From NCBI GenBank assembly GCA_950097015.1, contig CATNEN010000025.1:3906001-3970000 (forward strand): 64,000 bases of DNA, given 5' to 3'. Of the stretch, positions 27,092 to 61,222 are shown one piece after another. The translations under genes and the position numbers were made by a program. The notes under the pieces were generated by a model. The model saw only the letters and a list, made by a program, of their open reading frames with translations. It did no database searches and was not told the DNA's origin. Source of the stretch: Macrostomum hystrix (lineage: Eukaryota; Animalia; Platyhelminthes). Numbering within the stretch: the stretch's first letter is position 1; the number at the start of each line of letters is the position of its first letter.

Positions 27092-27262
27092 TCAGATATC
27101 GACAACCATCTTCTTATGAATCTCCAATCCGCCGACAAGTGCGCTGAATTCTTCAAACGAAATTTTTCCATCGCCGTCCTTGTCAGCGAAAATGATGGTC
27201 TTGTCCACAATCTGCTGCAGCTGCGCGTCCTTAAGATTGTTGCCAACCATCATCTTCAGAAC
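27092..27262 (-). CDS. PPP3R1: Calcineurin subunit B, coding exon 3 ([22 protein letters not shown]...[13 protein letters not shown]...KKMVVDI*)
   Basis: CAG acceptor; EF-hand 4; TGA at 27092-27094. Spliced product is 168 aa. Confidence 0.96.
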
Positions 27263-27376
27263 CTGACGGGCATTCAGTTAATAAAACTATACTTATAAAC
27301 TGACATTCCTACTATTAGAAGAGTACTTAAGGCAATTAGGGTATTACTGGCTACAAGCATTAAGTCCATGTCTCAC

Positions 27377-27511
27377 CGTAAACAGCTCGCCGTTGCTAAT
27401 GTAACCATCGTTGTCAATGTCATAGATTTTGAAAGCGAATCGCATTTTAGCCTCCTTGTTGCCGCGCACAGAGAATTGAGACACGCCGTCTATGAACTCT
27501 TTGAAGTCCAC
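27377..27511 (-). CDS. PPP3R1: Calcineurin subunit B, coding exon 2 ([15 protein letters not shown]...[13 protein letters not shown])
   Basis: CAG acceptor, 45 codons, phase 0, GTGAG donor; contains EF-hand 3 [12 protein letters not shown]. Confidence 0.97.
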
Positions 27512-27620
27512 CTGCGCCAGGATAGACAAGTCAATTGTCCATTGAGATCTCTAATATGAGATGAGCTGACCTGAATTGTACTTCTTCTAACTAGCTATTA
27601 TCCAAAGCCTTTTGGTTGTT

Positions 27621-28880
27621 ACTGTCCGTCGGTTATGACCAAATGTCCACAGGTTATACTCACTGTCCGTCGGTTATGACCAACTGTCCACAGGTTATAC
27701 CCACTGTCCGTCGGTTATGACCAACTGTCCACAGGTTATGACCAACTGTCCACAGGTTATACCCACTGTCCGTCGGTTATGACCAACTGTCCCTCGGTTA
27801 TGACCAACTGTCCCTCGGTTATGACCAACTGTCCACAAGTTATACCCACTGTCCGTCGGTTATGACCAACTGTCAACAGGTTATACTCACTGTCCGTCGG
27901 TTATGACCAAATGTCCGTCGGTAATGACCAAATGTCCACAGGTTATACTCACTGTCCGTCGGTTATGACCAAATGTCCACAGGTTATACCCACTGTTCCT
28001 CGGTTATGACCAACTGTCCACAGGTTATACCCACTGTCCCTCGGTTATGACCAAATGTCCACAGGTTATACCCACTGTTCCTCGGTTATGACCAACTGTC
28101 AACAGGTTATACTCACTGTCCGTCGGTTATGACCAAATGTCCGTCGGTAATGACCAAATGTCCACAGGTTATACTCACTGTCCGTCGGTTATGACCAAAT
28201 GTCCACAGGTTATACCCACTGTTCCTCGGTTATGACCAACTGTCCACAGGTTATACCCACTGTCCCTCGGTTATGACCAAATGTCCACAGGTTATACCCA
28301 CTGTTCCTCGGTTATGACCAACTGTCAACAGGTTATACTCACTGTCCGTCGGTTATGACCAAATGTCCGTCGGTAATGACCAAATGTCCACAGGTTATAC
28401 TCACTGTCCGTCGGTTATGACCAAATGTCCACAGGTTATACCCACTGTTCCTCGGTTATGACCAACTGTCCACAGGTTATACCCACTGTCCCTCGGTTAT
28501 GACCAAATGTCCACAGGTTATACCCACTGTTCCTCGGTTATGACCAACTGTCCACAGGTTATACCCACTGTCCCTCGGTTATGACCAACTGTCCACAGGT
28601 TATACCCACTGTCCGTCGGTTATGACCAACTGTCCACAGGTTATACCCACTGTCCGTCGGTTATGACCAACTGTCCACAGGTTATACCCACTGTCCGTCG
28701 GTTATGACCAACTGTCCACAGGTTATACCCACTGTCCCTCGGTTATGACCAACTGTCCACAGGTTATACCCACTGTCCCTCGGTTATGACCAACTGTCCA
28801 CAGGTTATACCCACTGTCCCTCGGTTATGACCAACTTTCCACAGGTTATACTCACTGTCCGTCGGTTATGACCCACTGTC
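27621..28880. repeat. Minisatellite in calcineurin B intron 1; ~41-bp unit of two related 20-21-bp subunits (CCACTGTCCGTCGGTTATGA + CCAACTGTCCACAGGTTATAC)
   Basis: About 30 tandem copies read directly, with a longer-period block repeated at ~27.87-28.5 kb. Confidence 0.97.
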
Positions 28881-28982
28881 TATCTATCAAATATAGCCAA
28901 CTGTAAGAAGAATTATTTTCATTCTCTTGCTACCATGGTGACTGAATAGTACGATAAGAATTAAGCAGTCACTAAAGCACAC

Positions 28983-29183
28983 CTCTCCATTGTGATCTGT
29001 GTCGAAGATTTCAATAACCCGTTGCACCAGCGGATTCTGCTGCAGTTCAGGCAGCGACATGAACTCGTCCACTGACAGGCTGCCGGAGCCATCGAGATCC
29101 AGCTTCTTGAAGCGCTTGCCTAGTCGTTTCAGCTCTTCCACATCGAATGTGGTGCACATGTCAACTGGCAGTGTGTTGCCCAT
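28983..29183 (-). CDS. PPP3R1: Calcineurin subunit B, coding exon 1 (MGNTLP...DTDHNGE)
   Basis: Translation [63 protein letters not shown] matches calcineurin B; Gly2 myristoylation site; 67 codons; GT donor at 28982. Confidence 0.97.
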
Positions 29184-32141: not shown

Positions 32142-32427
32142 TCAAGTGAACAAGTCCGGAGCAGCCACAAGGCAGTCCAACAGACCCGCTGAGTCTGCAC
32201 TGCTGCGCCCGCAGTCCGCATCGATTGAACTTGTCCCATTAACTGTCGCCGTTGCCGTAGCTATGCTTGAAGCCTTTGACTTCACCGCAATACCATGTAC
32301 TCTAGCCAGATGGACGCGCAAATTTGAGCCGGAGATAAGCGCAGCCGGACAGAGGCTGCACGGGTGCCGCAGGGCCGCAGTATGAACGGCCGCATGCGCT
32401 GATCGATGCTCGCGGCGGCAGAATCGC
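32142..32427 (-). CDS. C2H2 zinc-finger protein, last coding exon
   Basis: CAG acceptor in phase 2 completes CPVCDK|RFCRREHRSAHAAVH; next finger CSLCPAALISGSNLRVHLARVH; TGA at 32142-32144. Confidence 0.88.
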
Positions 32428-32806
32428 CTGCGAGATGGGGTGGCGTTCATAGCTGCCTTCTTTTGTTTGGAAAGATACCAAAACAGTTCTGAAGGAATTA
32501 AATGCTGATAGCAAAATATCAATAGAGCATTTTAGGGTTAGGGTAGGGGGTCGAATGATGTAAACTGATTTTAAAACGTTTTTGAACCGAAATCGCGGTC
32601 CGTATTTGACATGTAGGCTAAAAAATTCTAAAGCGTCAAAAATTATTTTCCCTTCTTAAAACAACCAACTGGAATGCTGCACTTAGCGGAGTTGAGACAC
32701 TTTCGACCCAAAACGGCGGCTCATCATACGAGCCGTATTTCATCGAGCCAGTTTATGACAGGAGTTATAAAGGAGTTCTACTTGTCAATAGACCACAACA
32801 ACTTAC

Positions 32807-33125
32807 TTATCGCACACGGGACATGCCAAGGGTCGCTCGTGCCTGGGCGCATGTCGCGCCAACCTATGCCTTTGAAGGTCTTCGTTTCGAGCGAATCGGA
32901 GACCCGGACAGTCGCTGCAGGCGAATGTCGGCTTGGCGTGACGGCTGCGCCGGTGGGCAGACAGAGCGCTGGCGCTTAGAAAGGCGGCGTCGCATTCGGA
33001 ACAGGCGTGACTGCGCGGTAGGCTCGCCAGCTCCCGGTGGCCGTGGCAGCTGTCCAGATGCCGCTGGAGACCGCCGCGTTGACGATAAGCCGAGTCACAG
33101 AAGTTGCACTGGAATGGCGCGGCGC
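32807..33125 (-). CDS. C2H2 zinc-finger protein, internal exon (not in the ORF track)
   Basis: Manual translation: AAPFQCNFCDSAYRQRGGLQRHLDSCHGHRELASLPRSHACSECDAAFLSASALSAHRRSRHAKPTFACSDCPGLRFARNEDLQRHRLARHAPRHERPLACPVCDK. CAG acceptor phase 1, GTAAG donor phase 2, 319 bp. Confidence 0.92.
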
Positions 33126-33672
33126 CTGCAGTAAATTGAAGTGGGACGGATAATTAAGCTTTACTATTTATTTACTTATTTACTTTACTTTTACTTTTTG
33201 TTATTAATATTTTGCGCACGCCACCAACGGGTGCTGATTTATATTTTTTTATTAAATATTTATCGCGGGGAAGTTAAAAAATAGTCATAAACAAGGAAGA
33301 GCAGAACTAATCGCTAGGAAAATTAAAATTAAGCCAAAAGGAGAGAAGTGTAGTATCACACCCGCCAATAAATTGTTCTATGGAAAAGGCTCTTTTCCTG
33401 CTAATCTTCTATATAAGTAGAAGATAACGCATGGCTTTTAGGGTTGTATTCGTACGAGTATAAATCCCGAGAGCCGAAGGCTGTCGAAGAATGATTAAAG
33501 AATGATTTTAACTAATTTTAACAACCCGTAAAAAGACATGCATCATCTCACTTAAATTCCGTGAATTCCGTGGATTTAACCTAATAAATCCCGGAAGATG
33601 CGACAGTTTGATTTAACTTCTGTTTAAATTTGAGCAGGCAGTGCTACGAGTCCAACTAAACTTAAGCAAGAA

Positions 33673-34075
33673 GTGGACCTCGTTTTTAACTTTTTGGCCC
33701 TTACTGCACAATCCTTTCTCATAGGGAATTCTCGGTCTTATAGATCACAATGTTTCGACTTCGATAAAGGCTCCTCGGGTTGCATTATTTTCGAAGAGCT
33801 GACGAATACTCGAGAGATTTTCCAACCAGCGTACATTCGACATTCGGTTTGGAACGGATGAGCTCCAGTACGTGGCGGCCTGGCAAGATTCGGCCACCCA
33901 TTCGACGTTTGAATAATAGTCAAGAGAAGAAATTGTACTATCATGCAATCGTTCTTCGCCACCCCCTTCCATTCAGCGCCCCTATCGCACTGGAGGATCT
34001 TGGAGATCCTTACCTCATGCCAGACGGGGCCCTTCTTAAGTACATCATTGAGACATGGTTCAGTGACGTCAAGTG
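33673..34075 (+). pseudogene. 5' part of an orphan, frameshifted ORF cut by the CACTG element
   Basis: Reads ...LYYHAIVLRHPLPFSAPIALEDLGDPYLMPDGALLKYIIETWFSDVK and continues in frame at 44777 once the insertion is removed. Confidence 0.5.
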
Positions 34076-35649
34076 CACTGTAAATTATAAGTAGCCGCAA
34101 GAGTGGCCGGATGTACCTGATATGGAAGTGGCCGAAAGTAAAATATTTTTGCAAGATTTTAATAATGTAAAATATATTCCAAGGACCATCTTCTTAGTGT
34201 TTAAACACTTTCTATGCCCTGGAAACTCAATATTACGATTGACTGCATACGACATGTGACAATAGTTAATAATTGTGGCCGGTTGTCAATATATGATCTG
34301 AATGTCATGCATTTGAAAGTTTAAGTGATGCAAATTCATACTTCCTTTGATTAGAAAACAAATGATGTAAATCTTCAAAGGCGAGAAATTTAGCGGTGTG
34401 ACAGAGCACAAAAATCTTTGTTGTGGCCGAAAGGCAGCCAATAATTTTGATATACTTACTTTGATTTAAAATACATTATTTATCTGCGTATTGAATTCAG
34501 ATTCCGCCCTCATTTTTTTCACCATTGGTTAGTTTTTTATTGTCTGCTTTGTCATTCGACTCTTTTCTGCTCTGCTCTACTGCATTGTTTTGTACGAGTA
34601 TTTTGCAATTAAATCGTTTGTTGACTTCAGTTACTTCTTCTACATACCTTTTCTTCACTTTGTGTTCTTCATTTCTATCGTATTGGCCTCAGTTTATTGA
34701 CCTTGCTTAGACTTTTAGAGTACGGCGCATTTGATTCATTTCTCAAAAAAATTGTAATTGGTGGCAAATTATTGTGCATGCATTTCGCTATTATGTTATA
34801 TTTGTAGGAAGATATTAAATTTGGTCCTTATCCATGCTGTTTTGGTTCTTTTTGTCTTGCTATGCTATTGACATTCTCAGTGATTTTTGTTTTTATTTAA
34901 TTGTTTCTATTTGTTGTTGACTTATATTGCCTAGCTTATTATCGTATTAGACCTGACTTTCATTTAATTGTCTAATAATTGTCGTCGAAGAGCTGACGAA
35001 TACTCGAGAGATTTTCCAACCAGCGTACATTCGACATTCGGTTTGGAACGGATGAGCTCCAGTACGTGGCGGTGTGTTTAATTGTCTAATATTATAGTCT
35101 AATGTTTAATTGTTTATTTGTCTAATTGCTTAATATTGATAGCAATATAAATGTAATTCGATAGAATCTAAGCAATACATTTATTTTTTTTTGTATTGAC
35201 CTAGGCTTACAACATTGTATGCCTAGTATATTGTACATTGTGAAATCATTTTTATTATCCATTCTAAGTATGTTTTCAACTATTATTTCATATAAATACT
35301 TTTTCTTACACTAATAACAACAATAAAATGGCACCCGAATTGTATCTTTTCTTGTCAAAGATCACAAAAAATGCATGTGAGTAATTCTCACGGAATGCAC
35401 GGTATTTATAAGAGAAGTGTCTCCAGCCGATTCTGTCTGTTTAATAAAAAAAAGAAGCTGCTTTTTGCAACCTAAAATATTTTTAAACAGTTTTTATGCA
35501 TAATTTTATCAAGCTTTGTTAAAATTATTGAGTTCTAATATAAATTTCAGTTGACTGAAATGTGACATTTTATCGGAATACACGTGTCTCTTACTGCGAA
35601 GACTCAATTTATTGCATGCTTTCTTGGAGCACACTAAGCACTAGACGAA

Positions 35650-38600
35650 ATGAGTAATAGAGAGAAACAATCAAAGCGTGGCGGTGAGAGCCGCCATCCA
35701 GACCTTGACAGGAGCTGGCGTATCGCGATCGCGCTCGGCGAGTCCGAGTTCGCCCGAGAAAGCCGGCAGTTCAAAATCCGCCAAGTCATCAAGGAGCATT
35801 AAGCCCACACCCCAGCCAGCAGGCAGCGCGGTCGTAACTCGACAACGCGCCTTGTTACTCAGTGCTTCAGCCGAACGGGCGTTCAAGATTGAGCCGAACC
35901 CTGCCAGTGCTAAACGTTGCCATCAAGAGGGAGGATGATGCCTCGGCGCCGCGCGCTAAGGGGCATATACGAGTCCAGGCTGACGCCCCCCTGGCCAGCC
36001 CTCTCTCTATAGGTCCAGATGAAGAATACCCTGATGCTGTTATGGTGGACATAACACAGGAGATCTCTCGTGTCAGTACAGGCACCAGTAAGATGCCTGT
36101 TGCTAGCGAGTCAGTGGCTACATCTTTAACACCTGGCCGGTTGGACGACCGAATATCCACGGAGTTTAGACTCCGGGCTGAGGGCAAAGAAATGCGAGAG
36201 GAGGCCAGGGCTATTACAGCTGCCGTTATGCGCAATAACGAATTCGACGTCAGGACGGACGGAGGATTTGCGCGGCATGCTAGCCGACTACGAACAAGAT
36301 CTAAATCACCAGAACGACATCATGCGCCGTCAGCTGGAGAATATAGAAAAGGGTTTCAGCTCCTGCCCTCCCACTTCTGAGGAGCAGGAGCGGATAGATC
36401 TGGAAATGGCCGTGGCCGCTTCACTCAATGAACAGGCCAGGCAAGATTTGTTAGGCCTTTACCCAGCGCGTAAATTCGGCGATAAGTGCATCTGGCTGTC
36501 AGGCGTCGTGGATTTCGACTTCACTCCACTGGCCGATGGTGTAACGGCTACCTTTCTAAGCCGTGTTAGCAACAACACGTGGGTAGATGGAGGCAAGGTA
36601 ACGCTTACGCCCGCCGGTGTACCTCAGATCTCCAGCGAGATCCGTCTTAACAGGCCAGATGGGGTGCCCATCATCCACCAGGTCCAAGCCCTATGGACAC
36701 AGAACAACGCAAGAAACAGGACTTTGCTTTATAATATAGCAAGGGATCCTGCTAGGCCCAACGGATCTGTGCGCCCTGAGGAATGGTCTGATTATTGTAG
36801 TGAGCCGTAGCTTAGGTGGCTCCCTTTTCCCGGCACTGAGTGGCTGTCCGGCCCGCCCTCTCTGGCGTTGTCTGGTCTGCTCTCTTTGTCCTCCCTTTCT
36901 CACGGCAGCGCTTGCACTTAGAGTGTGTTTTCTCTCCCCCAGGGATGAGTCATCACCTCTTTGTCCCGCGCTGGCCAGTCCCTTTCTTTGTGTGCACGTT
37001 TGTCTGCACTCAGTCAGCGCATGATTCTCCTCATGTGACTGGCCTCTCTCTTTGTCTCCTAAAGTGCACGTAAACATGTTTACTGCACTTGGGGCTTTGA
37101 TTATAGGACAGGAGCCTACGTAGGAGTGACGTTTCTGGCGCCACTGACGTCAGTTGCTATTTTTAGAAACCACGTGATTTCATCACGTGTTTTCTAACTA
37201 TGCACTGACCCTATGGGAGGCCCCTGCCTATAAAAGAAAGGCCCCGCTCCTCTGGTTCTCTATCCCTTGTTTAAACCTTCTCTTGATAACCGTCGTTCTT
37301 AACTTGTTCACTGTGCCATCAGTGTCTAAGTTTCCTACTTCAGTCTCTGCATGTGACTGCACGTAAGCTCAGTTCTGGCTAAGTCCCGAAACTAACTTAG
37401 CCTTCCACCCCACCATCCGAGCTACGCAGGACACTGACAGCCTGTAATTGCAACTGGAACTCTGCACTGTGTGCTTCTCGAGACTTTGTGACTTCGTTTC
37501 TTTCGGGCCAAGGATCCTTCACCTCACCGAAGGCAGAAGTCCTGACGCCCTGGTGGCAGCGCTACTACTACACTACCTGATATTCTTGGACTTCATATTG
37601 GAGTCCGCCGGATCCTCATTGTTAACAGGACGACCGGTACAACATTATACAGATAATGGTGAAATATCAAGCCGCAAGGTGAACGGCAAGCTGGCTGCTC
37701 ACGGTGAAGCTCACAACACCTGGCTTAATTCACTAACCGGCAGCATGTCGATGTCGGATAAGATAAGTCGGATAAGCCGATGTCGGCTTCTACACGCTAG
37801 CATGGACATTATTTTTCAACGCTTATAATCTCCTGATAACAGTTCGCAACATAGCGCCCCCGCCTGCTGTTCCGCCTCAATTGCATTGGCTGGATATGTC
37901 CATCGCTTTTGCGCCTGCCGCTGCCGGTGTTCTAGTACCTGGCACACTCATCTTCTACCGAGACCAGGGCAACTTTACTCCTGATGAATGGCTTGTTCTG
38001 AGCTGCATCTCGGCTGGCCTACCCGGTGTCGGCTCCCCTGGCATGGTGGCTCCTCTGCCCGCTGGCATTCCGCCTGGAGCTACTCATCCCTACACGCATT
38101 TCATCACCTCGCAGCCAATCACTATATGGGGCGTTGTAGGATCACACCAGCCTGCCGGCATCCTAGCAGCAATCAAGTCTCTGGCCAACACCAACAGGTC
38201 TGACGACGCCGACATGATAAGAGGCTTTTATCGAGCCGGGAGCATCTGCTTCGGCCAAGGACATAATGCAGCAGCTGCAGCACCCAATGTTGTGTCTCGG
38301 CATTATGTCGACTCTTTCTTCAAGACGCGCACCACCGTGCCTTGTCCTTCTGGCCCTAGCCTTGCCAGTCTGTACTTTCACTTCAGGCGGGCAGATAACA
38401 ACCCGCGCCCACCGGTTTCTGAAATAGCTACTCTGTCTCAATCCAGCCCAGGAGAGGTTTACAGTTATGGGTTGCAGTTAGCCGTTACTCTCACTTTGAG
38501 TTTCAGCTCCTTGCTTCACAACTTTAATATCACAGGCCGCAACCTAAGCACCATCTTTTTTGGTGCTCAGCTGGAAATAATCTAAGTTTTTATCGGGCAA

Positions 38601-39683
38601 CACATTTTCACGCGCCCGCCGGAAGCCAGTTCGCCTCTGTTCGTCGGCATTCATCGCTAAGAACTTGTACCTCCGCTTCGGCTTGACTATGTGGCAAGAC
38701 GCGTTCGTATGCGCCAATTGGTGCCACTTATCCCTCGGCCCGCCTGCCATCAATAACCCGCACGACTAATGGTATGATATGTATAACCATAAGATTCCGT
38801 ACCAGTTCCAGCCCCTTGCTGGCTTCGAGCTTCATCGGGCTGTGCCATATGAGTGGGCTATCGGCCTCGGCAAGGTAGAGGCGGACATCACTTCTGACTA
38901 CGTAGTCTTTGGTGCTGGTGTCATGAATCCCACCGGCATGCACACCAATTATGGCTCTGACAATTACGCTAAGCGCGCTGTGTCACCACTCTGGTCTAAG
39001 CTAGAGCTGTACGGCTATCAAGTCATTAATGCGCTCAACCAATATTACAACGCTAACGTGGCTATTGTGATAACTCAGTACCAGTTTCCGCATAACCGCT
39101 CGGCCTCACACGTTGCCGGCGCATATGTTGCTGCACCGCCACTAGGAGCTTCTGCTGTTATTGCCGTTACGCCGTTTCTCAATCCGGCTACTTTGCTCAG
39201 TGCCAGCAATGCCAACCATTTCATATGTCTCCTTCGATTACTACGGCCAACATGATCCCAGGCCTGTCAGCCTTCTTGTTAAGTATGATCGGCGGTAAGA
39301 AAGACTGGAATCTATCAGGCGCTGTATCCCTCGACTTTCATGCCCTGCTGCATCGCGCCTTACAACATGGACTTCGGCCTAGCTGCGCTGGTGCGTCCGG
39401 AGCCCCCTGTCTGCTGAGGCTCACGGGCAAGTTGGCCAAGATGTGCTTCGAGCTCACCGCGACAAAGTGGCTGGCGAAGTGGCTAAAGCCATTGATGCTG
39501 TCAAGCGTGTGTACTGGAGACAAGCACGTTGCGCGAGAGCAGCTGGATGCACGTGCTGCGGCGAGCGCTCAAGCAGTTGACAATGCAGTCAACGCCGCCA
39601 TACGCGTAGCCAATCAAGCGGCGGGTGAGGCTACTGCTGCGCCCCCTGTTCCAGGCAGCGCTCAGGCCACAGCTTTAAACTAG
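35650..39683 (+). pseudogene. Endogenous toti-like dsRNA virus ORF1 (capsid/Gag-like, Pro/Ala-rich), degraded and interrupted by an LTR-like insert
   Basis: Chain of overlapping plus-strand, intronless, GC-richer ORF pieces (35862, 36268, 37448, 37776-38585, 38779, 39225) joined by frameshifts and stops. Ala/Pro/Gly-rich C-terminus; ends at a slippery site directly upstream of an RdRp. Capsid identity is inferred from position. Confidence 0.65.
36796..37433 (+). mobile_element. LTR-like insertion with a Pol II promoter, inside viral ORF1
   Basis: Starts TGTAGTGAGCCGTAGC and ends GCTACGCAGGACA. CT-rich, non-coding. AP-1 TGAGTCA 36946, CRE TGACGTCA 37145, MEF2-like CTATTTTTAG 37157, E-boxes CACGTG 37171/37184, TATAAAAG 37229. 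No clean TSD found. Confidence 0.55.
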
Positions 39684-39729
39684 GCTGTGCACGCTTGACC
39701 GGGCAGTACAGCAACTGTTGTCTGCTTGG
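39674..39729 (+). promoter_or_regulatory. -1 programmed ribosomal frameshift signal (U UUA AAC) plus predicted H-type pseudoknot
   Basis: GCT TTA AAC TAG: heptamer 39674-80 in X_XXY_YYZ phase just before the ORF1 stop. Stem1 GCTGTGC 39684-90 / GTACAGC 39706-12; stem2 CCGGGCA 39699-705 / TGCTTGG 39723-29. The -1 frame is open to 40027. Confidence 0.75.
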
Positions 39730-41232
39730 GTTCGAGGCTGATCGTAACTGTTTATTTGGCGACAGTCTCATAGCGTGTCTTAACTCTTTTACTCATCTCC
39801 AAATCAAAACTGACTCACGTTTTTTGCGGTCTAATTTCTGTTGCTTTTTTGTCGTGTCGTGCATGATATTGCTTCCGCTGTACCGTATTCTACTTTATTT
39901 TTTATGCCTCAAACATTTACTCCAGTTTTCTGCCCAGGTTTTAACATACATTATTCATTTGCTTTCCCCCATCAATGCACACGTGATCACCTGCTGGCTG
40001 TCGAGTTGGAATATCAACGAGGCATGATACCTCAAGACCTGTACGACGTATGGTTTCGAATTAAATTAAATCGAATGTGACTGATTTTGGCTCTAGATCA
40101 ATGCTGTACTGGGACGTGCGCTAAGATTTTCTAGTTAGGCGATTTTCAATGCAGCTCTGTTAACGAGTATTTGCCGTCTGGTGTCACTGCCGATGACTTG
40201 CTAAATGACGGGTTGCCGCTCAAGCGTTGTTGCCGTGGTTGCTACCACCTGGATTGGAGGCCTGGCTTGCCCGGCCATCTGTTGGAGCGGTGTTTCGACT
40301 TTGTAGATGATGCTAATAGGACTATGACTTCCATGCGTGCTAGCCATTTGATTGATTGTGCCCGAAATTTAGGTAAAGCAGAACTATGGGAGTCATCTTT
40401 GTCCTCAGTGCTGAGTGTTTTGCCTGTTGGGTCGCTAGATCACACGGTCGCCACGTGTCTACTGTTCGCCGTCAGCGTTTTTGAGAATTGGCGACGCTAC
40501 AGCGAGCTGATGAGGCGCGATGCAGCGTGTTGTATCACCGTAGATGGCTTCGCAAAGTACACAAAAGCAATATCAGTTGCCATGCGCCGTACCCAACGTT
40601 GGGTGGATGGTTCACCGATGAGCGTATCGAGCGTTGCTATCTGTGCGTATCTGGAAATGGCTACTGGCAGGAACCGCACCCTGACTGATTGGGATGCCGA
40701 AATTAAGAAAAGGTGCCACGACGTACGCGTCATTTTAGATTTACTTGATGACGGCGATTATCATCGGAGGCTTGAAGATGCTGTTAGTGCGCACTCGCGA
40801 GTTGATACCTGGCCGAGTCCACGACATCACTACAAGGAGTACGTCGCCACTAGATACCTACATATAGCGTCTGGATCGAGCTGCGGCGCTAAAGCTCACA
40901 GTTCTGATGGCAAGCAGCACGTTTCATCTCAATAAGCGTGGGCTTTTTGAGTGCTTGCCCGCTGCCGACATTTTGACCTGGCTTGACCTGGAGCCTCTGC
41001 TGCTGTCTATCGGCAGTGAGAAAGGTGAAACTGGCAAATCACGCGAAATCCTCGCTTCTAACATTGTAGCCTACGTCATTATGGACTACACTTTGCTCGG
41101 CATAGAACCTAAGTTTCATAACATCTCAGGCGTTAAGTTAGGCCTCGGCAGCTACGACGAGTGCGCCGCTATGAGGCACCGATTGCTTAACATCTGTTTA
41201 GAAGGAATAGAAAGTATGATGATCGATTATGC
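39674..41232 (+). pseudogene. Endogenous toti-like virus RNA-dependent RNA polymerase, truncated at motif A
   Basis: Recognisable Totiviridae/Ghabrivirales (RdRP_4-type) motifs in order: YLEMATGRNRTLTDWDAEIKKR, YVATRYLHIASGSS, LNKRGLFE, EKGETGKSREILA..Y..L...E, then MMIDY (start of the DYxDFNSQH motif), after which viral sequence stops. Two internal stops and two frameshifts. Confidence 0.85.
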
Positions 41233-41376
41233 CGCTTCGCTCGCCTCGTGACCATTATATGCGACCTGACTTTCTGACCATAGAATGCGCATTATAAAGC
41301 TATTATCTTATACGTTAACTCCACTTGCGCCAAATCGCATAGCGAAATCTCGAATGCCATAGACAAATATTCAGTA

Positions 41377-42209
41377 CAGGGCCCGATTTCATAAAAAACC
41401 TACAAGCGACAAGTGACAATTGGACAAGTTACAAGCAACAAGCGACAAGTGACAACGATTTCGGTTTCATAAACCGAAGCTCGCCCTTCGTGTTAAAAAA
41501 TAGATCGTGTCTGGTGTCTATGGGCAAACTGTGAGAAATCGATCCATTTTTGTGGAGACACTTGTGTTGCCTCCTTAGTCTATGGTCCAAAGCCAAACTC
41601 CCGGCGGAACTCGAAAATCTGGTTCACTTTTTAAAGCTACGTTATCATTCTATCACAGTATACTAAATATTCTCTGATCGCAAGTCATTATATTTTTATA
41701 AAGTGTTCTTACTGTTTGATTATGAAGGAGAAAGAGGCTGCCAAGAAATAATAGGTCCAATTATTTGCAGCAAGTTCTCCACGTGATCAGTTCGGAGTCT
41801 AAAACGCTCAGAAAAGTAAAAGCCTTGGGGCTGGAAATTAATACGTTCCTTGAATGTCCTTGGAAATTGTCTAGCCAGCATTGCCAACTCCTCTTTATCT
41901 TCCGTGTCGGACATGGCGAAAGCAAATATAGTAGAAGTTTGCGATCTGTGTTACAAGTGTCCCAACCACTTGTCAAACTCGGATGAATAAAAGAGCCGAT
42001 TCTGCGCAGAAGCAACTGATTCAGCAAATATCTATGGTCAAAACCCCGAGAAAAGCGCTTTTAATTTGTCGAATTTTACTTGTCACTTGTAACTTGTAAC
42101 TTGTCGAATTGACAACTTGTAGGTCATGTTTATGAAACGCATTAATTTACGGAATTGTCACTTGTCAGTTGTAATTTGTCGGACAAGTGCTTTATGAAAT
42201 CGGGCCCTG
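41377..42209 (-). mobile_element. Internally deleted PIF/Harbinger element
   Basis: Perfect 19-bp TIR CAGGGCCCGATTTCATAAA; ACAAGTGACAA/ACTTGT subterminal repeats. Minus ORF 41720-41914 (RTFKERINF...FSERFRLRTDHVENLLQIIGP) resembles the Harbinger transposase N-terminus. TSD unclear. Confidence 0.75.
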
Positions 42210-43224: not shown

Positions 43225-43850
43225 ACTGAAGAGATGTCACAGAGCAGGGCATTCTTGGTGATTCTAATCCTAAGCAACTGCTGTACACTGTCATCTTTAC
43301 GCTAGGCAAGGCTTTTGGCTTGCGTGGTGGTAGAGAACTACATGAACTGGAGTTTCAGAAGCAAATTAAAATGGGATTTGACGCAGGAGAGGAATCTTTA
43401 CTATTTAATGAGGCGACGGTCACCAAGACTTGCCAATGTGGCCTGAAGACTTATAACAGACCTTTAAAGACTGGAAAGATATTCCTCACTATTGATCATC
43501 GGTTCTGCACCGTGTGTCTCTACAATAAATATAGCGAAAGAAGACCGCAGGAATGTACCAAATCATGTCTGTTTCTTAACTGGTTTCGCAGTGAGGAGGC
43601 TGTAAAGAAGGGTAAATGGTACCAGAATCAAGCGGTCGGCCGACATACAATCGACCAAGTTGTCAAGAGTCTAACTGCTAGTCTACCTGTACCTACTGGA
43701 GGACGCTACACTAACCAGACGCTAAAAAAACGTGCGCAACAACCTTGCGAGACGCAGGCCTTGAACGAGCTGAAATTGGTCGAATAACCGGTCACTCGTC
43801 AAATGCTCTGGAGCGCTACATCGGTTCGTCCAAGGACACTATTGAATGAA
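43225..43850 (+). pseudogene. Crypton (DUF3504/ZMYM-KCTD1-like) tyrosine recombinase remnant
   Basis: QGILGDSNPKQLLYTVIFTLGKAFGLRGGRELHEL...FCTVCLYNKY..RRP...WYQNQAVGRHTI...RYTNQTL, then frameshifted ITGHSSNALERY. Confidence 0.8.
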
Positions 43851-44774: not shown

Positions 44775-44885
44775 TGTGCCATTCTAGGGATCAAGATTGA
44801 AGCCGCAGTCAATGGCTACAACATACCGTCCATCCGTGCGCTGTTGAACAACCTGCATGGAATGGATATCCTGTCCTATCTCTAA
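44775..44885 (+). pseudogene. 3' part of the orphan ORF split by the CACTG element
   Basis: CAILGIKIEAAVNGYNIPSIRALLNNLHGMDILSYL*, in frame with ...WFSDVK at 34073 after removing the element and one TSD copy. Confidence 0.55.
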
Positions 44886-45692
44886 GTATTGGCAAGGGCT
44901 ATGCCTGCGTCAGTTAAGTGTTGTCTTGTTAGGTAGAAGCAATCTAATGCATAAATTATGCAAATTGCCGAAGGTAGCTTAAAACTACCAAGAGGTTCTG
45001 GAAGCACGCTTTTTAAGCATTGATAATTAGCACCAGTTTAGAGCAGGCTGAAACCATCGTGCGCGCCTTTCTAACCGTTCTGCTAGCACCTAGCCTACAT
45101 GACATTTATGTTGCTCTTGCAGATGGCAACCATGATGCGCCGCTGGCCGTAATTCGTTCCTTCGTTACGGGTAATCAGCCTATCGAAGAGACTGAGCTCC
45201 AGCTCCGCAATTAGCCAAACTTTCAGCGCCAAGACAAGACCCTTATAAGATCATTACCGTTCTGGCAATGGGTCGAGAGATTTTGTCCTCACTTATGAAT
45301 AGAAAAGCTTGTGAACTTAAAAAACTTTTCCGATATACTTTCGTATATATGAGCAATATGAGCAACGCACAGCATCAGTTTCGACTCTTTGAGTTAGCAT
45401 GCGCTAGACAGAATCAAAATTAACATCAAAATCAATACCTCGAGTTTAAATTTAAGAATAAATTCTCGTTACTTTAGAAACACCTCATACAACTAAATAA
45501 CTCGTATTTTTTTTTTAATTTGCAGTGCAATACTTCAAATCTTTTCATTATCTGTTTCATCAATTCTGCTGCAAACAACAGCACTTATCGTTTGACTTTT
45601 GCTAGATTTACATACCATTTTTGCGACGCACAAGAATGAAATCTGAATGATTTTTAAATGACTGTTTCATGGTGTTATTATATATATATTAC

Positions 45693-49056: not shown

Positions 49057-50298
49057 CACTCAGCAACATTTAAAACGCAACACTCTAACTAGAAGAAAAA
49101 TCAACTCACTCAGAAGAGTCAAAGTGCATAGTCTATGGTTCAAATCGAGCTTCAGAAACGCGTGTAGCCTCCTCTCGCAAGTAACAGGGCGTTGACTCGA
49201 CGTGGCATTCCCAGAACAAGGCGTCGAAAAAAGTCCTGGGGAATTTCCTGCCACGCGTTAGCAACAGCGTTTCGCAGTTCAGCGACTGTCTGCGGCGGAT
49301 TCTGCCGTTGAACACTCCGCTTGATAAAGGCCCAGACATGTTCAATTGGGTTCATATCAGGGGATCTCTAAGGCCACCGAAGATGTAGTTTGCAGTTTGC
49401 GACGCCACCAAAGTGGTTGTTAACAAAAGGGAGCAGATGCGTCTGCAGCAAACGAGCGTACTCATCGCCGTTCACGTTTGCGTCTAAGAAAACCAGCTGG
49501 GTCCTGCCTCGCATTGAAATCCCTGCCCACACGTGTACGGAGGGTCCCTGCCCATCGCAGCTTTGCACGTGCTGCTGCAGAAGCTCTTGCCGTGGCTCAC
49601 GCCAGACGCGAATTCGACCATCACTGCGAAAAAGACGAAACCGACTCTCGTCTGTAAAGATAACGCGCTGCCACTGTCCTTGCCGCCAGTGCGCCCGCTG
49701 CATGGCCCACAGTTCCCTGTTAGCGACATGTGCAGGACTCAGGCGCGGCCTCCTCCGCATTTTTCTTGACCGCAATCCTGCAGCGTGAATCCTGCGGCGA
49801 ATCGTCTGCGCGCTGAGAACGTTGCCTCTGCGGCTTCTCTCTGCCCACATCAATCGCAGGAGTGTGGCAGGCAGTGTGGGGTTTCCACGCACTATTCTCA
49901 GCAGGCGTCGATCTGCCCTCGCTGTTGTACTGCGAAGTTGGTGAAGCACCGTACCTTTTCTCGCGTGAGCCACGCTTCCAGTGGCTCTGCTCTTCTGTAG
50001 CAGACGTAAAACTGTTGAAGGCGACCTCCCGAAGTGGTTCGCAACTGTTCGAAGAGTACAACCTGCTTCCAACATTCCGACTGCTCGCCATCTTTCCGCG
50101 TCTGTCATCTGTTGAACCATTCTCTCAGCTGGATCACTCTGTCTGAAAACAAACCATAGTCATCGCCCTGTTACTTGCGAGAGGAGGCTACACGCGTTTC
50201 TGAAGCTCGATTTGAACCATAGACTATGCGCTTTGACTCTTCTGGGTGAGTTGATTTTTCTTCTAGTTAGAGTGTTGCGTTTTAAATGTTGCTGAGTG
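49057..50298 (-). mobile_element. Tc1-family DNA transposon, full length but inactivated
   Basis: ~135-bp TIRs starting CACTCAGCAACATTTAAAACGC; TA TSD on both sides; encodes a Tc1 transposase. Confidence 0.95.
49152..50120 (-). pseudogene. Tc1 transposase pseudogene
   Basis: HTH N-terminus, VIFTDESRF, SVHVWAGIS, WP..SPDMNPIEHVW. A deletion/frameshift near 49370 removes the second catalytic Asp (QDDNA motif). Confidence 0.92.
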
Positions 50299-50391: not shown

Positions 50392-50636
50392 TGTCATTAT
50401 TGTACCCTTTTGACTTCCCTTGTCTATGGCCCAGACATAGTGCGGATGCTGAGTATGAAATGCGATTGTTGCCGGAATGTTGCCGGAGAGCAAATTTAGT
50501 CGCTCTCTAAATGAAAGGGTTGTAGAGATAATTAATCGTTTATGGCAAATTTAAAGGACAGTGAAGACAGCTAGCCTGGCTGCCATGAGTTAATTCTCAA
50601 GTTGATTTTGAGCTTGAATTAATTCTCCTATTCGGA

Positions 50637-52058
50637 GTGCAAATAGGAAAAGTAGCTATGATTCACTACGCAAACATTCCTGGCGGAGAAATATGTGGAC
50701 TCTCCACGGACGAGTTGGCTTTTGTCACCCGAGAGTCGAGCACGCGCTACGTTCTGGAGATGGACAACCTGGATGCGTCGTCCAGTTCCAACGGGCTGCC
50801 TGAGCTACGTAGCGAAGATCTGGAAATGTTGGACCGACTTGAGAGTGACTCAGTGCCGAAATCGACCGAGACGCAACGGAAGCTTCACGTGGCAAGGTTC
50901 CGACAGTTCCTCAACGAGAAGGGGCTCTGCCAGGAGTTTGAGCGTGTTCCGGATCGATTTTTGAACGATTATCTGAGGCTTTTCTATTCATCTCTTCGAA
51001 AGCAGGATGGAACTTACTATGCGCCAAAGTCTCTCATCTGTTTTCGTGCGGCTATTCAACGCCACCTGCAATCCCCGTCCGTTAATCGCCAGGTGAAGCC
51101 TTCAAGCGTTGCAATGGCGTTCTTGTCGCCATGGTGAAAATGTACATGGAAGGACACGTCGAGAAGGTAGACAAATACGAAGCTATTTCCGAGGACGACA
51201 TGCAAACAATTCGCGCATACTTTGACCGAACGTCCCTTCGTAAACTGCAGGACGAAAACATTTTCAACGTTCTGCTCCATTTCGCACTGCGAGGCCGAGA
51301 AAATCTGAGAGAGTTGACACCTGGATGTTTTGAGATAGTGTCAGAAGGAGGTACGGAGTTTGTACGCGTCGCTGTCGCCATGCTGTCGAAAAATGTTAAA
51401 GCGTCGTTGAACGAGAAGGCATTCAAGGATCTCAAGTTAGCTCGGATGTACAGCGTGCAAGACAAAACTGTTTGTCCCGTCGAAGCCTTTAAAATGTACG
51501 TCTCTCAACTACCGAATGGATGTGAGGTGTTGTTCCCAAGGCTCAATAAGTCTGGCTTCTCAGCCTGCCAACGACTCGGCAAAGATTCACTTGGAGACTT
51601 CATGAAGAATCTGAGTGCGTGTCTGGCTCTGCAGCGGAAGTACACCAACCATTGTGTGCGAGTAACCACGGTGAGTAAAGATCGCATGGCCTACTCACTT
51701 CAGTAAAACTGTAAGAATACTGTCTTACCCAACTGCTGAAACTTAGGTGAACTGTTTGGCCAAGGCCGGTTTCGATAATCAAGCGATTACACTAATGACG
51801 GGACACAAGAATTCGAGCTCAGTGGATGTATACAAGCGGCGAGACATGGACTGTGTGGCCCGAATGAGCGCTTGTCTGGCTGCCTATGGGTCCAAAGTCA
51901 CCAAGATTGACGACGATGCGGAATCCACCATCGAAAGTGTGACAACTGGGTCTGATAGAGGCGAGCTGATGAAAGCACCCGAGGGCGGCCAAGACCTGCC
52001 GAGAAGCCTCTGTGGTGGTCAGTTCCACAACTGCACATTCAACTTTTACGGAAAGTAA
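50637..52058 (+). pseudogene. Crypton tyrosine recombinase gene with one intron (51671-51746) and one frameshift (~51105)
   Basis: Catalytic set ALRGRENL, NHCVRVT, TGH, DVY; N-terminal FYSSLRKQDGTYYAPKSL...RAAIQRHL; phase-0 GTGAGT...TTAG intron joins RVTT|VNCLAKAG. Confidence 0.9.
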
Positions 52059-56335: not shown

Positions 56336-57654
56336 CAATTTGAACTTATTTAAATATGAATAATTTCTCGGAAAATACGTATATGCTAAATTTAACAAAA
56401 GACGATTAATACATACGGATTGAATGCATACACTATCAGTAATTCTTAAATGCCATTCAAAATAAATAAATACATACTAAGATGATTCAGAAATACACTG
56501 ATATAATATAAATATTTCACTAAACCTAATCCGTCACAACGGGAAGGTTATAGTTCATGCAACTCACACCTCATAATCATATGTCATGGGCATCAATATG
56601 TAAAAATATTTGCAAAAGTAATTAATAATTAGATTAGCCTTCTTAAGTTTATCACACAACGCACTGGGAAAAAATTCTACCAATCATTTAATTGTCAGAC
56701 TCCATCTCATCATCTCAGTGTCTTTAGCAGCAAGAGACAAATGAATGATATTAATTCAATGACTAAAAGGTAAGTTTATTATGAATCTGCATAATTGTGT
56801 GCTGGAAAAAATTGACACAAAAGACATGCTTAGAGATGATATGAATAAAGATTGAGGAAGCCCGGGTGTCGTGACCGCGCATTAATCTCTTATTTTTTCA
56901 TGCAACCTAGATGGCAAGAGCTGGTCCATCTCTCACTCAGATCTCAAACCACTGGGGCAAACGCACTGCAAGCAAGTCCAAAAAGGGGACCGCGGGTGGC
57001 TTTGAAGCTTTGCACAGCACGCAATGCACCATGGCATGCTGAGGGGGCTTAAAACGCTGACGACTTATCAAGTGGAGGCATGGGCCAATCTAAGCTGTGT
57101 TCATGGCATCGGCAGCCCTGTTTCATGCGGTCTTTCAGAAAATCTTCATTCTGAAACAGACAAGCTGCTGACTTGATGCAATGGGAAAAGAAATCTTGAT
57201 ATTTACGCACGCGGGGCCTAAGGGAGAGAGACAGCTGGCGGATATTTTCTGTCTCACCCACACCTTGGTCCCTTAGTCCTACTTTCTTCCCCCCCTCCGC
57301 CCACACAAGGTATGAATGTGAGCAGATACCTCAGCAGAGATCTTCATCAGCATGGCTCTCCAACACTGGGTGGTGCGGGGTGGCCGCTGCAGAGATCCCA
57401 ATTAACTGCATGGCTATTTCACGGGTTCGCCAAAAAGCTAGGAGAGCTGTGATTGGTCAGCGAGTCTACTAGAATAAAAAAAGTCCCCCGTGGAGGTACG
57501 CATAAGACAAGAGGGCAATAAAGGTACTATTTAGAAATATTGAGGCCGATGCAGACAAGACAGACGGAGAAGGACAAGTGTAGTAAGGACATTCGCAGAC
57601 AGACAGGAGTGACAAGCTGAGAACGGGAGAGATTGAAACCTCACCATCCAGACA

Positions 57655-57994
57655 ATGAGCGACAGTGGTGTTGATACTAGCGGTCGGATCAATGATCAGG
57701 ACGATGTGGAAGTTGACGCTGAAGACGACAGCGGCCTCGACAAACTTGACGCTAGTCTTGACAGACGGCGATACAGCATACTGCGTCGAGACCAGCTTCG
57801 AAGGCTACACGAGCTGCTCCGGCGACAAGTAACGCTTCGCGGCCGTCCGCAGCCGTCTGGCTTGGGCTCCAGGAGCCCTGTGCTGCGACTACAGCTCAGC
57901 GACCTGCTGCGACGGCTGCGCGCTCGTCTGTCGAGTGCCGGCGTGCCTGTGCGAGATGTACGCCTCAATGGAAGCAGCGCCAGCTTCGTCATTG
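57655..57994 (+). CDS. TENT5: Terminal nucleotidyltransferase 5 (FAM46) exon 1
   Basis: ...VRDVRLNGSSASFVI is the FAM46 signature; GTGAGT donor in phase 1. Confidence 0.93.
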
Positions 57995-59729
57995 GTGAGT
58001 GCAGAGCTTGCAAGCTTGTAGCCAAGTGCTTAGAGCCTGAGACTTCTCACCGAAAGCTCCGGAGTTTGAATCTTTTAGCCCGACCGGGAAGCTATTTGTG
58101 TCCCTAATTCAGTCCACAGACTGAACAGCTGTACGCAGCCTTTGGAACTTATCTCATGTTCGTCGCCAAATCCTTCGTCGATTAAAAAACTTTCTCATGA
58201 TGCATTTGATTACTATCCCTGTTCTTCTTAAAGCTCTTTTTGTAATCGTAACGAGTAAATTCTCGCTTACAGCTATATAAAAGGTTGAAAATTGAATTAT
58301 TCCTCACCTCGATTGGTTATTATTCTGCACGTGATGTCTGCATCCACAACAAAACTGTAGAAGTATGCAATTCAAATATTCGTATTTATAATACAGACAA
58401 TCACTGAGTTGAATAATCATAATAGAACTGGGGGTATTATCATGGGATTGATGAAATCTGAAATTGATATCAAAGCTTAGCTTCACTGCTGGTATACTAA
58501 AATGTACGCTCGGATTTACCATCGTACTATGTATTGTCATTCCCAGTTGATTGACTCTATAGAACTGCTCATTTTCGCAGCACGCAATCATGAGCATGCA
58601 AAGCACCTCCACAATGGGAATGAACTTATTGAAAACCAGCATTCACAAGCAACTATCGGTAGCACTATAAACTATAAACTATATACTATCGGTGGCAGTA
58701 AAATTAGCAGCAGCATTAGCTAGTTTGTGGGTGTATAGTGACCACAGCCCAGTCCATGGACTGAACAGCAAAACTACAGGATGTGCGGCGTATTAGCTGC
58801 GAATGTGAAAGATCATCGTCATTAACATTAGGTAATAGTTTCATGGGTTAATCATAAATTTCATCACTGATTCGATGCTTAAAAACCCTGTAAAAGGCGT
58901 CATTTGCTAAAGTTACGTGAATTTTGTTTCTTTGTATGCTCTTCAACAAGCTTCTTACTCGACTCTGCAAAGAACCGTGAGGTTGCTTTTGCCACAGAGT
59001 CTAAGCAGTTTTCCTTGCTATTTTCCTCGACATTTTTAGATTTGCGCACCGCCACAAAAACTGTTACCGCAGCCGCACGCTGTGAGAAACTCAGTCGGGA
59101 CTCTGAGCTCCGCAATCGATCGAAATTGTTCGCGCAAAATAGACTCAATATATAGCTACATTCCCCCCTGCGCGAACTCAAGAACACCTGGTGCCACTAG
59201 GTGGAATTTGCCGCGACGCTGGGATGGGTTTCAAGTTAATTGTCTTCTTCAGTTTAGCCGATGACTCGCCTGTCCCTCGACGTCTCCATGCTCAGTGGGT
59301 TTTTACTCGCAGGCGGGTCATTGTGTGAGGACTGCACTGCTATTACATTTTTGAGCGTTTATTTTTAGATGCTGATTAATGGTGGTCGCTTTCTTACGTG
59401 CACATTTTCTGAAAACGAAAGATTGCTGGTTGCTTTGGACTGACTGATCCGCTGAGTCCAGGAATCGGGTAAAGAACTTTGTCATTCACGGTAGTGGGTA
59501 AAAAACTCACGGCCTGATTCCCATAACAGGAGTTCCCAAAATCTGACAGCTGCAGACAGATCCTGTTTGATTAGTACTTCTGAGGAGGAATTTTCTGCAT
59601 CTTTTCTTGCCACTGTTTCTATCCGACATGTGTTCTCTCACTGACCAATAACTCTGGGGAATTCTCTTAGAAGGTAAGCAGTGGTCGGCAGGATCCGGCT
59701 CACGGATCAGATACGGCTCATGAATCTCC

Positions 59730-60620
59730 CGTCCCATCTCTAACCTGTTTCATCTCTCCCATGTCTCATCTCTCCCGTTTCTCATCTCTCCCGTGTCTAA
59801 TCTCTCCCGTGTCCCATCTCTCCCGTGTCTCATCTCTCCCGTTTCTCATCTCTCCCGTGTCCCATCTCTCCCGTGTCCCATCTCTCCCGTGTCTCATCTC
59901 TCCGGTGTCTCATCTCTCCCGTGTCCCATCTCTCCCGTGTCCCATCTCTCCCGTGTCCCATCTCTCCCGTGTCTCATCTCTCCCGTGTCCCATCTCTCCC
60001 GTGTCCCATCTCTCCCGTGTCCCATCTCTCCCGTGTCTCATCTCTCCGGTGTCTCATCTCTCCCGTGTCCCATCTCTCCCGTGTCTCATCTCTCCCGTGT
60101 CTCATCTCTCCCGTATCTCATCTCTCCCGTTTCTCATCTCTCCCGTGTCCCATCTCTCCCGTGTCCCATCTCTCCCGTGTCTAATCTCTCCCGTGTCCCA
60201 TCTCTCCCGTGTCCCATCTCTCCCGTGTCTCATCTCTCCCGTGTCCCATCTCTCCCGTGTCCCATCTCTCTCGTGTCTCATCTCTCCCGTGTCTAATCTC
60301 TCTCGTGTCTCATCTCTCCCGTGTCTTATCTCTCCCGTATCTCATCTCTCCTGTGTCTCATCTCTCCTGTGTCTTATTTCTCCCGTATCTCATCTCTCCA
60401 GTGTCTTATCTCTCCCGTATCTCATCTCTCCTGTGTCTTATCTCTCCCGTGTCCCATCTCTCCCGTGTCCCATCTCTCCCGTGTCTCATCTCTCCCGTGT
60501 CCCATCTCTCCCGTGTCCCATCTCTCTCGTGTCTCATCTCTCCCGTGTCTAATCTCTCTCGTATCTCATCTCTCGCGTGTCTTATCTCTCCCGTGTACCA
60601 TCTCTCCCGTATCTCATCTT
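59730..60620. repeat. 16-bp minisatellite (CATCTCTCCCGTGTCC) in the TENT5 intron
   Basis: About 55 tandem copies, degenerating at the right end. Confidence 0.97.
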
Positions 60621-61009
60621 CCACGCTCGCATGCCTCATGTCTTCCCTGTCTTATCTTTCATTTCTCATTCAAAGGACTTTTTAACCAACAACCCTGCTT
60701 AGGTCGGAAAGAACCAACTGTTTAAAAAGACGAATAAATTTGACAAATGGACAAATATTGCTCCGTTTCTCTGCAGCCACTCAACGCATTCGTGTCATTC
60801 TTGTGTGCCTCGCTGCTGAGGAATCCTCTTCAAAGACCAGGGCGGGGCCAGAGCAGCCTGTAAAACTGACTCGAGAATGCTGTTCTGTACAGTTTAAGCC
60901 AAAGGCTTTTCCCATCACTTCTGCGCAAGAGTCAAGCAGGTGAAGGGCTTCCGCCTTTCGGGTTCACGTGGATGTCAAAATTTCCTCCTTCGAACTATGT
61001 GGAAGATAA

Positions 61010-61160
61010 CATCATGTACTGATACTCCTATCTTAATGACACCTAGTGATACTCCTACATCAATCACGTCTAGTGGCACATCTACCTTAATGGCATCTAG
61101 TGATACTCCTAACCTCAATCACATCTAGTGGCACATCTACCTTAATGACATCTTCTACCC
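61010..61160. repeat. Short degenerate tandem repeat (GATACTCCT / TCTAGTGGCACATCTACCTTAATG)
   Basis: 2-3 imperfect copies near the TENT5 exon 2 acceptor. Confidence 0.55.
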
Positions 61161-61222
61161 CAGTGTCTTCATTCTAAAAGCCTCCTAGATCTCCCCGATA
61201 ACCTGTTCCTGTTGCCTTCCAG

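Follow-up and report, generated by a model that had tools for sequence, protein, structure and literature searches.

How does a double-stranded RNA (dsRNA) virus come to lie in the chromosome of a free-living flatworm, directly behind a piece of the host's own spliced leader (SL)? We investigated this question in a window of 64,000 nucleotides (nt) from Macrostomum hystrix (GenBank assembly GCA_950097015.1, contig CATNEN010000025.1, positions 3,906,001 to 3,970,000 of the forward strand); all positions given below count from the first letter of this window. The element in question is almost certainly an endogenous virus, a decayed chromosomal copy of a spicivirus-like dsRNA virus. It holds a whole predicted capsid open reading frame (ORF1), a -1 slippery site at the ORF1 stop and the first half of an RNA-dependent RNA polymerase (RdRp). 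A first-pass annotation, made from the letters alone, had described a near-complete toti-like virus starting at 35650. Its reading as a toti-like endogenous viral element (EVE) held, as did the order of ORF1, frameshift and RdRp and the integration as a single piece into an animal genome. ORF1 probably does start at 35650, but an SL relic adjoining further 5' was overlooked, as was the nature of an insert in ORF1, a polymorphic solo long terminal repeat (LTR).

The RdRp was analyzed with a profile of 988 positions built from 51 full-length relatives, which matched 39946-41233 over its positions 29-466 (E 2e-41 and 5e-31). The stretch 40135-40932 found 82 relatives at E<=1e-3, mostly of about 1,000 amino acids (aa). 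One of 12 natural pieces scanned, 40868-41248, passed the cut-off of Pfam RdRP_4 (E 8.9e-05, 22 bits, at the cut-off), the family that the annotation had named for this region and which is present in 38 of 42 scanned relatives. A word-based protein search with the same piece gave nothing, and the single-sequence fold of the RdRp piece had a predicted local distance difference test score (pLDDT) of 36. The RdRp peptides quoted by the annotation are all present on the plus strand in the order claimed. Matches by tblastn stop at 41233 and the alignment to the Murri virus RdRp stops at residue 514 of 1038. Since the matches end in motif A, the copy lacks half of the RdRp, and motifs B and C (GDD) would lie beyond its end. 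The annotation was therefore right in placing the cut inside motif A without GDD, with matches ending at 41233-41236. No RdRp profile match to the second half was detected elsewhere in 26000-64000. This also holds for an ORF-like segment with a GC content of about 50% that lies in AT-rich DNA at 44790-45270 and matches neither the RdRp nor the ORF1 profile. Related genomes measure 6.4-8.1 kb as compared to 4,762 nt of the element without its LTR insert. With the RdRp profile covered only in part and the 5' leader missing, the element amounts to about two-thirds of a viral genome and is not near-complete.

The -1 frame is open from 39629 to 40027, over the U UUA AAC heptamer and the ORF1 stop. 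An identical heptamer occurs in one related genome, and 8 of the 15 that were compared have an in-frame heptamer of the type X XXY YYZ at most 12 nt from the ORF1 stop, with ORF2 in the -1 frame. For a frameshift stimulator we determined z-scores of -2.9 in 90 nt and -1.0 in 80 nt, and the pseudoknot score was matched by 15 of 200 shuffles. We infer that the RdRp was placed downstream of the capsid via the predicted -1 frameshift signal; the virus would have made a capsid and a capsid-RdRp protein through -1 frameshifting.

Without the LTR, ORF1 comprises about 1,059 codons or 3.18 kb, somewhat less than the 3.4 kb estimated by the annotation; ORF1 proteins of relatives have about 800-1,150 aa. 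A profile built from ORF1 of 11 relatives and scanned against 938 pieces matched 38770-39252 (E 8e-17) and 37776-38582 (E 3e-10), while a match at 36367-36780 was weak (E 0.15) yet collinear and in register. Within ORF1 the strongly matching segments are 37878-38567 and 38677-39108. When ORF1 proteins of relatives were searched by tblastn, the proline-alanine-rich protein (PArp) of Spissistilus festinus virus 1 (SpFV1) matched at E 6e-09 and persimmon latent virus at E 1e-04. By hhalign an ORF1 piece of the window aligned to residues 404-631 of Hubei toti-like virus 10 ORF1 at 96%. The structural model of the Hubei protein has a mean pLDDT of 47.6, with a core of 70-90 and residues 1-246 and 677-920 unreliable. 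It resembles the yeast L-BC capsid (E 1.7e-05, Z 11.4, root-mean-square deviation 5.3, 379 aligned), also matches L-A, and its top nine VIA rows are all dsRNA-virus capsids. As the window piece aligns to the core of a relative whose model fits the L-BC and L-A capsids, the ORF1 product is, by inference, a probable capsid with the L-A Gag fold. The comparison with totivirus capsids proposed earlier thus came out positive by way of the Hubei model. The stretch 35619-36366, which includes the first ~240 ORF1 codons, has no homologue by ORF1 profile, and the neighboring piece reached an hhalign probability of 0.5%; at the ORF1 N-terminus this is expected, since the modelled N-terminus of the relative is disordered. 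A word-based protein search with 36130-36807 and a sequence search of PDB found no match, and a word-based search with the ORF1 alignment returned only two close relatives. For the PArp family itself, the Hubei toti-like virus 10 ORF1 (genome nt 886-3645) is predicted to carry the L-A/L-BC Gag fold at residues ~249-680; to our knowledge PArp has not been recognized as a conventional capsid.

The closest named relatives, at about 25-42% identity, are Murri virus, Hubei toti-like virus 10 (Spicivirus shi) and the PArp viruses (Spiciviridae, Ghabrivirales). Hubei toti-like virus 10 and SpFV1 are Spicivirus species, while Murri virus is filed by NCBI under unclassified Orthototiviridae. Named RdRp matches were Murri virus, mute swan faeces toti-like virus 2 and Hangzhou Paraphaenocladius totivirus 1; 13 of the first 20 matches were unnamed Logan proteins and one had only 'hypothetical' JGI members. 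Further RdRp matches are genomic copies in Sergentomyia, Caligus and Pomphorhynchus. These RdRp-like genes, annotated as 'hypothetical' in the genomes of a sand fly, a sea louse and an acanthocephalan, belong to the same group of viruses and are likely further EVEs. The genomes compared include Hubei toti-like virus 10, Aedes toti-like virus 1, persimmon latent virus, SpFV1 and Circulifer tenellus virus 1 (CiTV1). Trees were calculated with FastTree, entering the two RdRp pieces as separate rows, dropping rows below 60% of columns and using query-selected references and unnamed outgroups. Each piece grouped closely with Murri virus and Hubei toti-like virus 10 (support 0.87 and 0.83) and more widely with SpFV1/CiTV1 (0.92 and 0.95); both sit on long branches and their sister taxa differ. 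The reading of the annotation, a so far undescribed toti-like (Ghabrivirales) virus of an invertebrate that is preserved as an endogenous copy, is supported. Features of Ghabrivirales are found in the RdRP_4 RdRp, the 5' capsid ORF (indirectly) and the frameshift-type layout, and of Spiciviridae in an ORF1 homologous to PArp. By sequence comparison the element is Spiciviridae-like, and we do not call it a member of the family.

All or part of the stretch is contained in five of seven listed public runs, whose labels name two species. We compared contigs from four runs, three of which are named X1, X2 and X3 here. In X2 a single unbranched contig of 4,906 nt extends over 35590-41293 at a depth of 80.9, with flank contigs at 62.6-71.7; depth across 37771-41073 is 80.2-80.9, equal to one contig. 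The 3' junction is bridged by an X1 contig reaching from 37644 to 41658 and by the X2 contig to 41293. On the 5' side, X1 and X3 contigs run from the host flank (35043) into the SL relic. The junctions proposed by the annotation are thus supported, by contigs rather than long reads. Among the X2 contigs compared no second copy was found at >=90% identity, a weak negative because filtered records are omitted, and the 31-nt leader between SL relic and ORF1 is unique. The viral sequence is joined to host DNA at single-copy depth; the original 3' end may be lost. The insert in ORF1 is skipped by X1 and X2 contigs, whereas both its junctions are bridged in X3, and in X2 it is multi-copy with a depth of ~4,000-8,000 vs 81 for the element. 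It is a polymorphic solo LTR, younger than the element, which arrived in ORF1 after integration. Three stops in 945 homology-supported codons correspond to a decay of about 3% (0.6-9%). The listed allele differences in supported frames (n=8, of at least 13 in the viral region) fall on codon positions 1/2/3 as 2/3/3. Protein-level domestication was ruled out by the stops, frame changes, LTR and missing third-position bias.

We also analyzed the sequence directly 5' of the virus. Here the 3' 33 nt of the 44-nt SL of Macrostomum lignano (PMC5173321) are present with 33/33 identity, ending at the splice boundary and in sense to the viral plus strand. The relic occurs once in 64 kb and in none of 100 shuffles. 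Contigs show a depth spike and many diverging 3' ends at this position. In the M. lignano SL RNA gene a GTAAG donor follows the SL (PMC8629364), whereas the relic is followed by CT and lacks the first 11 SL nt, and it is therefore not an SL RNA gene. Such a gene, which needs the whole SL, a GT donor and an Sm site, was rejected on the same two grounds; an Rfam scan of 26000-64000 gave no match, SL included. Across the relic, GC rises from 0.30 in the 5' flank to 0.55 downstream. ORF1 profile position 397 falls on nt 36780 and position 570 on nt 38151, 173 positions over about 172 LTR-free codons, and collinear extrapolation sets profile position 1 near nt 35620. The SL hence stands just before the whole ORF1, the first ATG following after 31 nt. 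In nine of ten related genomes whose 5' end is probably complete, ORF1 has its first ATG at nt 334-991, and in the tenth at nt 34, so that the SL occupies the place of a viral 5' leader of 330-990 nt. An exact SL ending at its boundary indicates that the copied template likely carried the SL, and very probably the SL was attached at the RNA/cDNA stage. The match alone would assign the host to Macrostomum, likely to M. lignano or to a species close to it. Over 35619-35630, a single contig in X1 and another in X3 keep to the window for the SL and at most 12 further nt before passing into other sequence (mismatches not being visible).

Table. Coordinates of the viral element and of the features belonging to it.
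Feature	Position	Strand	Size, identity or basis
Viral element without SL relic	35619-41233	+	5,615 nt; 4,762 nt minus 853-nt insert
SL relic	35586-35618	+	33/33 identity to 3' part of M. lignano SL
31-nt leader, SL to first ATG; origin viral or host	35619-35649	+	sequence
ORF1, predicted capsid (PArp/Gag-like), broken by stops, several frame changes and LTR	35650-39683	+	profile matches; start codon inferred
Solo LTR, TG...CA ends	36796-37644		849 nt; 4-bp target duplication 36792-36795 / 37645-37648
Predicted -1 slippery heptamer U UUA AAC	39674-39680	+	ORF1 frame, directly 5' of ORF1 stop
ORF2, RdRp 5' half	39681-41236	+	~520 codons; RdRp profile; 2 in-frame stops, >=2 frame changes
3' junction and host flank	41237-41376		followed by inverted-repeat element 41377-42209

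How was the SL joined to the virus? We tentatively favor a route in which the SL was trans-spliced to the plus strand of the infecting virus, followed by retroposition. Host trans-splicing would join the SL to viral plus-strand RNA at an acceptor just upstream of ORF1, replacing a 5' leader of several hundred nt, and would require entry of the viral RNA into the nucleus. A host retroelement would then copy the SL-capped RNA into DNA and insert it into the germ-line genome, the 3' third being lost or never captured, with neutral decay of ~3% thereafter. This direct capture is supported by the exact SL boundary, its position before ORF1 and the missing second copy in X2. RNA of a planarian toti-like virus has been reported to be nuclear (bioRxiv 10.1101/551184), which we count in its favor. 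An exogenous RNA virus of dinoflagellates bears the SL of its host, an SL lies at most 500 bp away from 6 of 26 dinoflagellate EVEs (PMC10235124), and retroposition of SL-bearing viral RNA has been put forward as a model (PMC9651163). For SsTV2, a tapeworm virus with vertical transmission, the best match is Hubei toti-like virus 10 (PMC7305300), suggesting that this virus group infects flatworms. A number of points weigh against direct capture. The nuclear planarian virus belongs to another clade and uses a +1 frameshift (bioRxiv 10.1101/551184). No close exogenous relative was found in viral contigs or metagenome contigs, so that no living SL-bearing virus is shown; the SL pattern was likewise missing from the viral contigs searched. 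The junction has neither a 3' poly(A) nor a target duplication shared with the 5' flank (shared words reach 7 nt at most). As 35619-36366 is without a recognizable homologue, the exact beginning of the viral sequence is not fixed. All four runs belong to one study, their contigs span the joint of SL and virus with only 21-29 SL nt, below the 31-letter rule, and they may be compatible with a parent copy that was lost or is more diverged. In addition, totiviruses are held to replicate in cytoplasmic capsids, away from the spliceosome.

Such a parent copy is assumed by a two-step route, which we consider somewhat unlikely: the virus integrated elsewhere, RNA polymerase II transcribed that copy, and the trans-spliced transcript was retroposed here. 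A viral nuclear phase becomes unnecessary. In M. lignano about 30% of the genes receive an SL by trans-splicing (PMC8629364), flatworm genomes commonly contain retroposed mobile elements that bear a partial SL (597 loci; PMC12582326), and toti-like EVEs can be transcribed and spliced (PMC10636211). However, a surviving parent would be expected at >=90% identity given a total decay of only ~3% (0.6-9%), and none was seen among the X2 contigs compared, although this counts for little with records filtered out; a chance acceptor 31 nt 5' of ORF1 is possible but not expected. Template switching or ligation, by which the reverse transcriptase of a retroelement jumped from viral RNA to the 5' end of an SL-capped host RNA and the virus was never spliced, appears unlikely. 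SL-capped RNAs are very abundant as judged from the depth spike, the 31-nt leader and the first ~240 codons are without homologue, and one X1 and one X3 contig track the window to 35630 before diverging. Yet a loose 12-nt match among thousands of SL-mRNA junctions may be chance, the switch would need to hit the SL boundary as well as the ORF1 start to within tens of bases, GC is at coding level right after 35650, and ORF1 length fits that of relatives. Very unlikely is an SL unrelated to the virus, be it through a pre-existing relic beside the landing site or through insertion of an SL-targeting retroelement into an SL RNA gene. Retroelements of this kind exist in nematodes and trypanosomes, and X2 does contain non-gene SL-bearing sequences (8-10 contigs with differing flanks), but a single SL in 64 kb would hardly lie in sense within ~30 nt of the virus by chance, and the first 11 SL nt, the upstream flank of the other X2 SL copies and the GT donor are all absent. 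An assembly chimera or contaminating viral RNA is highly improbable: the window differs from X1-X3 by shared substitutions and gaps, as an artefact might, whereas independent contigs lead out of the virus into flanking host DNA (X1 to 41658, X2 to 41293) and out of the flank into the SL (X1, X3), a host LTR with target duplication lies inside, the frames are disabled and depth in the DNA-like X2 resembles that of the flank.

If the SL was indeed spliced onto the virus, this would be an animal dsRNA virus using nuclear trans-splicing for capping. We regard it as doubtful that a Macrostomum dsRNA virus routinely sends its plus strand through the nucleus, where the spliceosome would swap the long leader for a capped SL. 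Were this the case, capture of an SL by an RNA virus of animals would have left its first trace here, and flatworms should still harbor relatives with an SL. Either way the fused SL preserves the condition of the RNA when it was reverse-transcribed, and clues of this kind to the germ-line entry of cytoplasmic RNA viruses are rare. The element extends Spiciviridae-like viruses to a free-living flatworm model, with a fixed host, which is usually missing for metagenomic members. Because of the polymorphic LTR and low decay the locus could be dated across Macrostomum lines.

We compared the element with known systems. Toti-like EVEs in animals and SL-flanked RNA-virus EVEs in dinoflagellates are already known. 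Spiciviridae and their kin (Aedes alboannulatus and Aedes camptorhynchus toti-like virus 1, Spissistilus festinus virus 1, Circulifer tenellus virus 1, persimmon latent virus) share the homologous ORF1 and RdRp, the -1 heptamer at the ORF1 stop and ORF2 in the -1 frame. The element differs from them by its long terminal branch, by being integrated, broken and without 5' leader and RdRp C-half, and by its free-living flatworm host and host SL. Toti-like EVEs of planthoppers (ToEVEs), one of which, NlToEVE14, has been co-opted (PMC10636211), and other animal toti-like EVEs are likewise germ-line copies from the same broad virus group and polymorphic in populations. In contrast, the element is a long ORF1-frameshift-RdRp piece with an SL and, unlike NlToEVE14, gives no hint of selection at the protein level. 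EVEs of dinoflagellate RNA viruses (dinoRNAVs) and a Symbiodinium RNA virus with dinoSL have a host SL at or near the 5' end of RNA-virus sequence, as here; dinoRNAVs are positive-sense single-stranded RNA viruses with the SL within 500-2,000 bp, whereas here an animal dsRNA virus has its SL fused 31 nt before ORF1. The flatworm viruses SmedTV (a planarian tricladivirus with nuclear RNA) and SsTV2 are two-ORF toti-like viruses with vertical transmission but exogenous; compared by description, not by sequence, they have no SL reported in the available parts of their accounts. In SmedTV, which is PMCV/LbTV-like, ORF2 lies in the +1 frame with a UUU_C slippery site instead of a -1 heptamer (bioRxiv 10.1101/551184). 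A flatworm virome survey, as far as available, lists a nyamivirus as the sole M. lignano virus and set EVEs aside (PMC9241645), and the accessible part of the supplement of PMC10101049 has no Macrostomum entry. In the open-access literature we found neither this element nor a toti-like virus of Macrostomum described, and no account of an SL borne by an RNA virus of animals or by an EVE derived from one.

The contigs also bear on present transcription. All four runs were guessed to be DNA by an automated call, while X1 and X3 resemble cDNA, showing many different sequences after the SL. One repeat has a depth of 42,890 in X2 vs 194 in X1, and in X1 the element has a depth of 17-29 and the farther 5' flank of 3-5. 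If X1 and X3 are cDNA, RNA runs from host DNA near 35040 past 41658 and stems from the locus, not from free virus. This is a hint that the locus is read through as non-coding RNA, on contigs that give no strand, start or level. At 37737 an X1 contig joins the element with at least 255 unrelated letters before it, which may be a splice form, another copy or chance.

Neighbors of the element in the window are a C2H2 zinc-finger gene, DUF3504 and Tc1-like transposons and a TENT5-like gene. The C2H2 zinc-finger exons lie at 32142-33153 on the minus strand, and the element may be located in or before that gene. A 95-nt direct repeat (33784-33878 / 34978-35072, 97% alike) has its second copy at the depth step of X1. 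On the 3' side, the inverted-repeat element at 41377-42209 has perfect ends of 19 nt and internal repeats of 7 nt and is skipped by one X2 contig. Further downstream follow a DUF3504 (Crypton-like) segment at 43230-43787, a Tc1-like transposase at 49368-50159 and a QRICH1-domain remnant at 50589-51706. A gene for a TENT5/FAM46-type nucleotidyltransferase (PF07984) extends over 57637-62325 on the plus strand, with a 16-bp array at 59731-60619 between exons. The beginning of the window, 1-25836, is occupied by a 26-bp satellite of about 1,000 copies with 91% matches and a strong G skew. It is followed at 27100-29180 on the minus strand by an intron-containing EF-hand gene, presumably encoding a calcineurin B-like protein, with a 41-bp tandem array inside it at 27621-28880.

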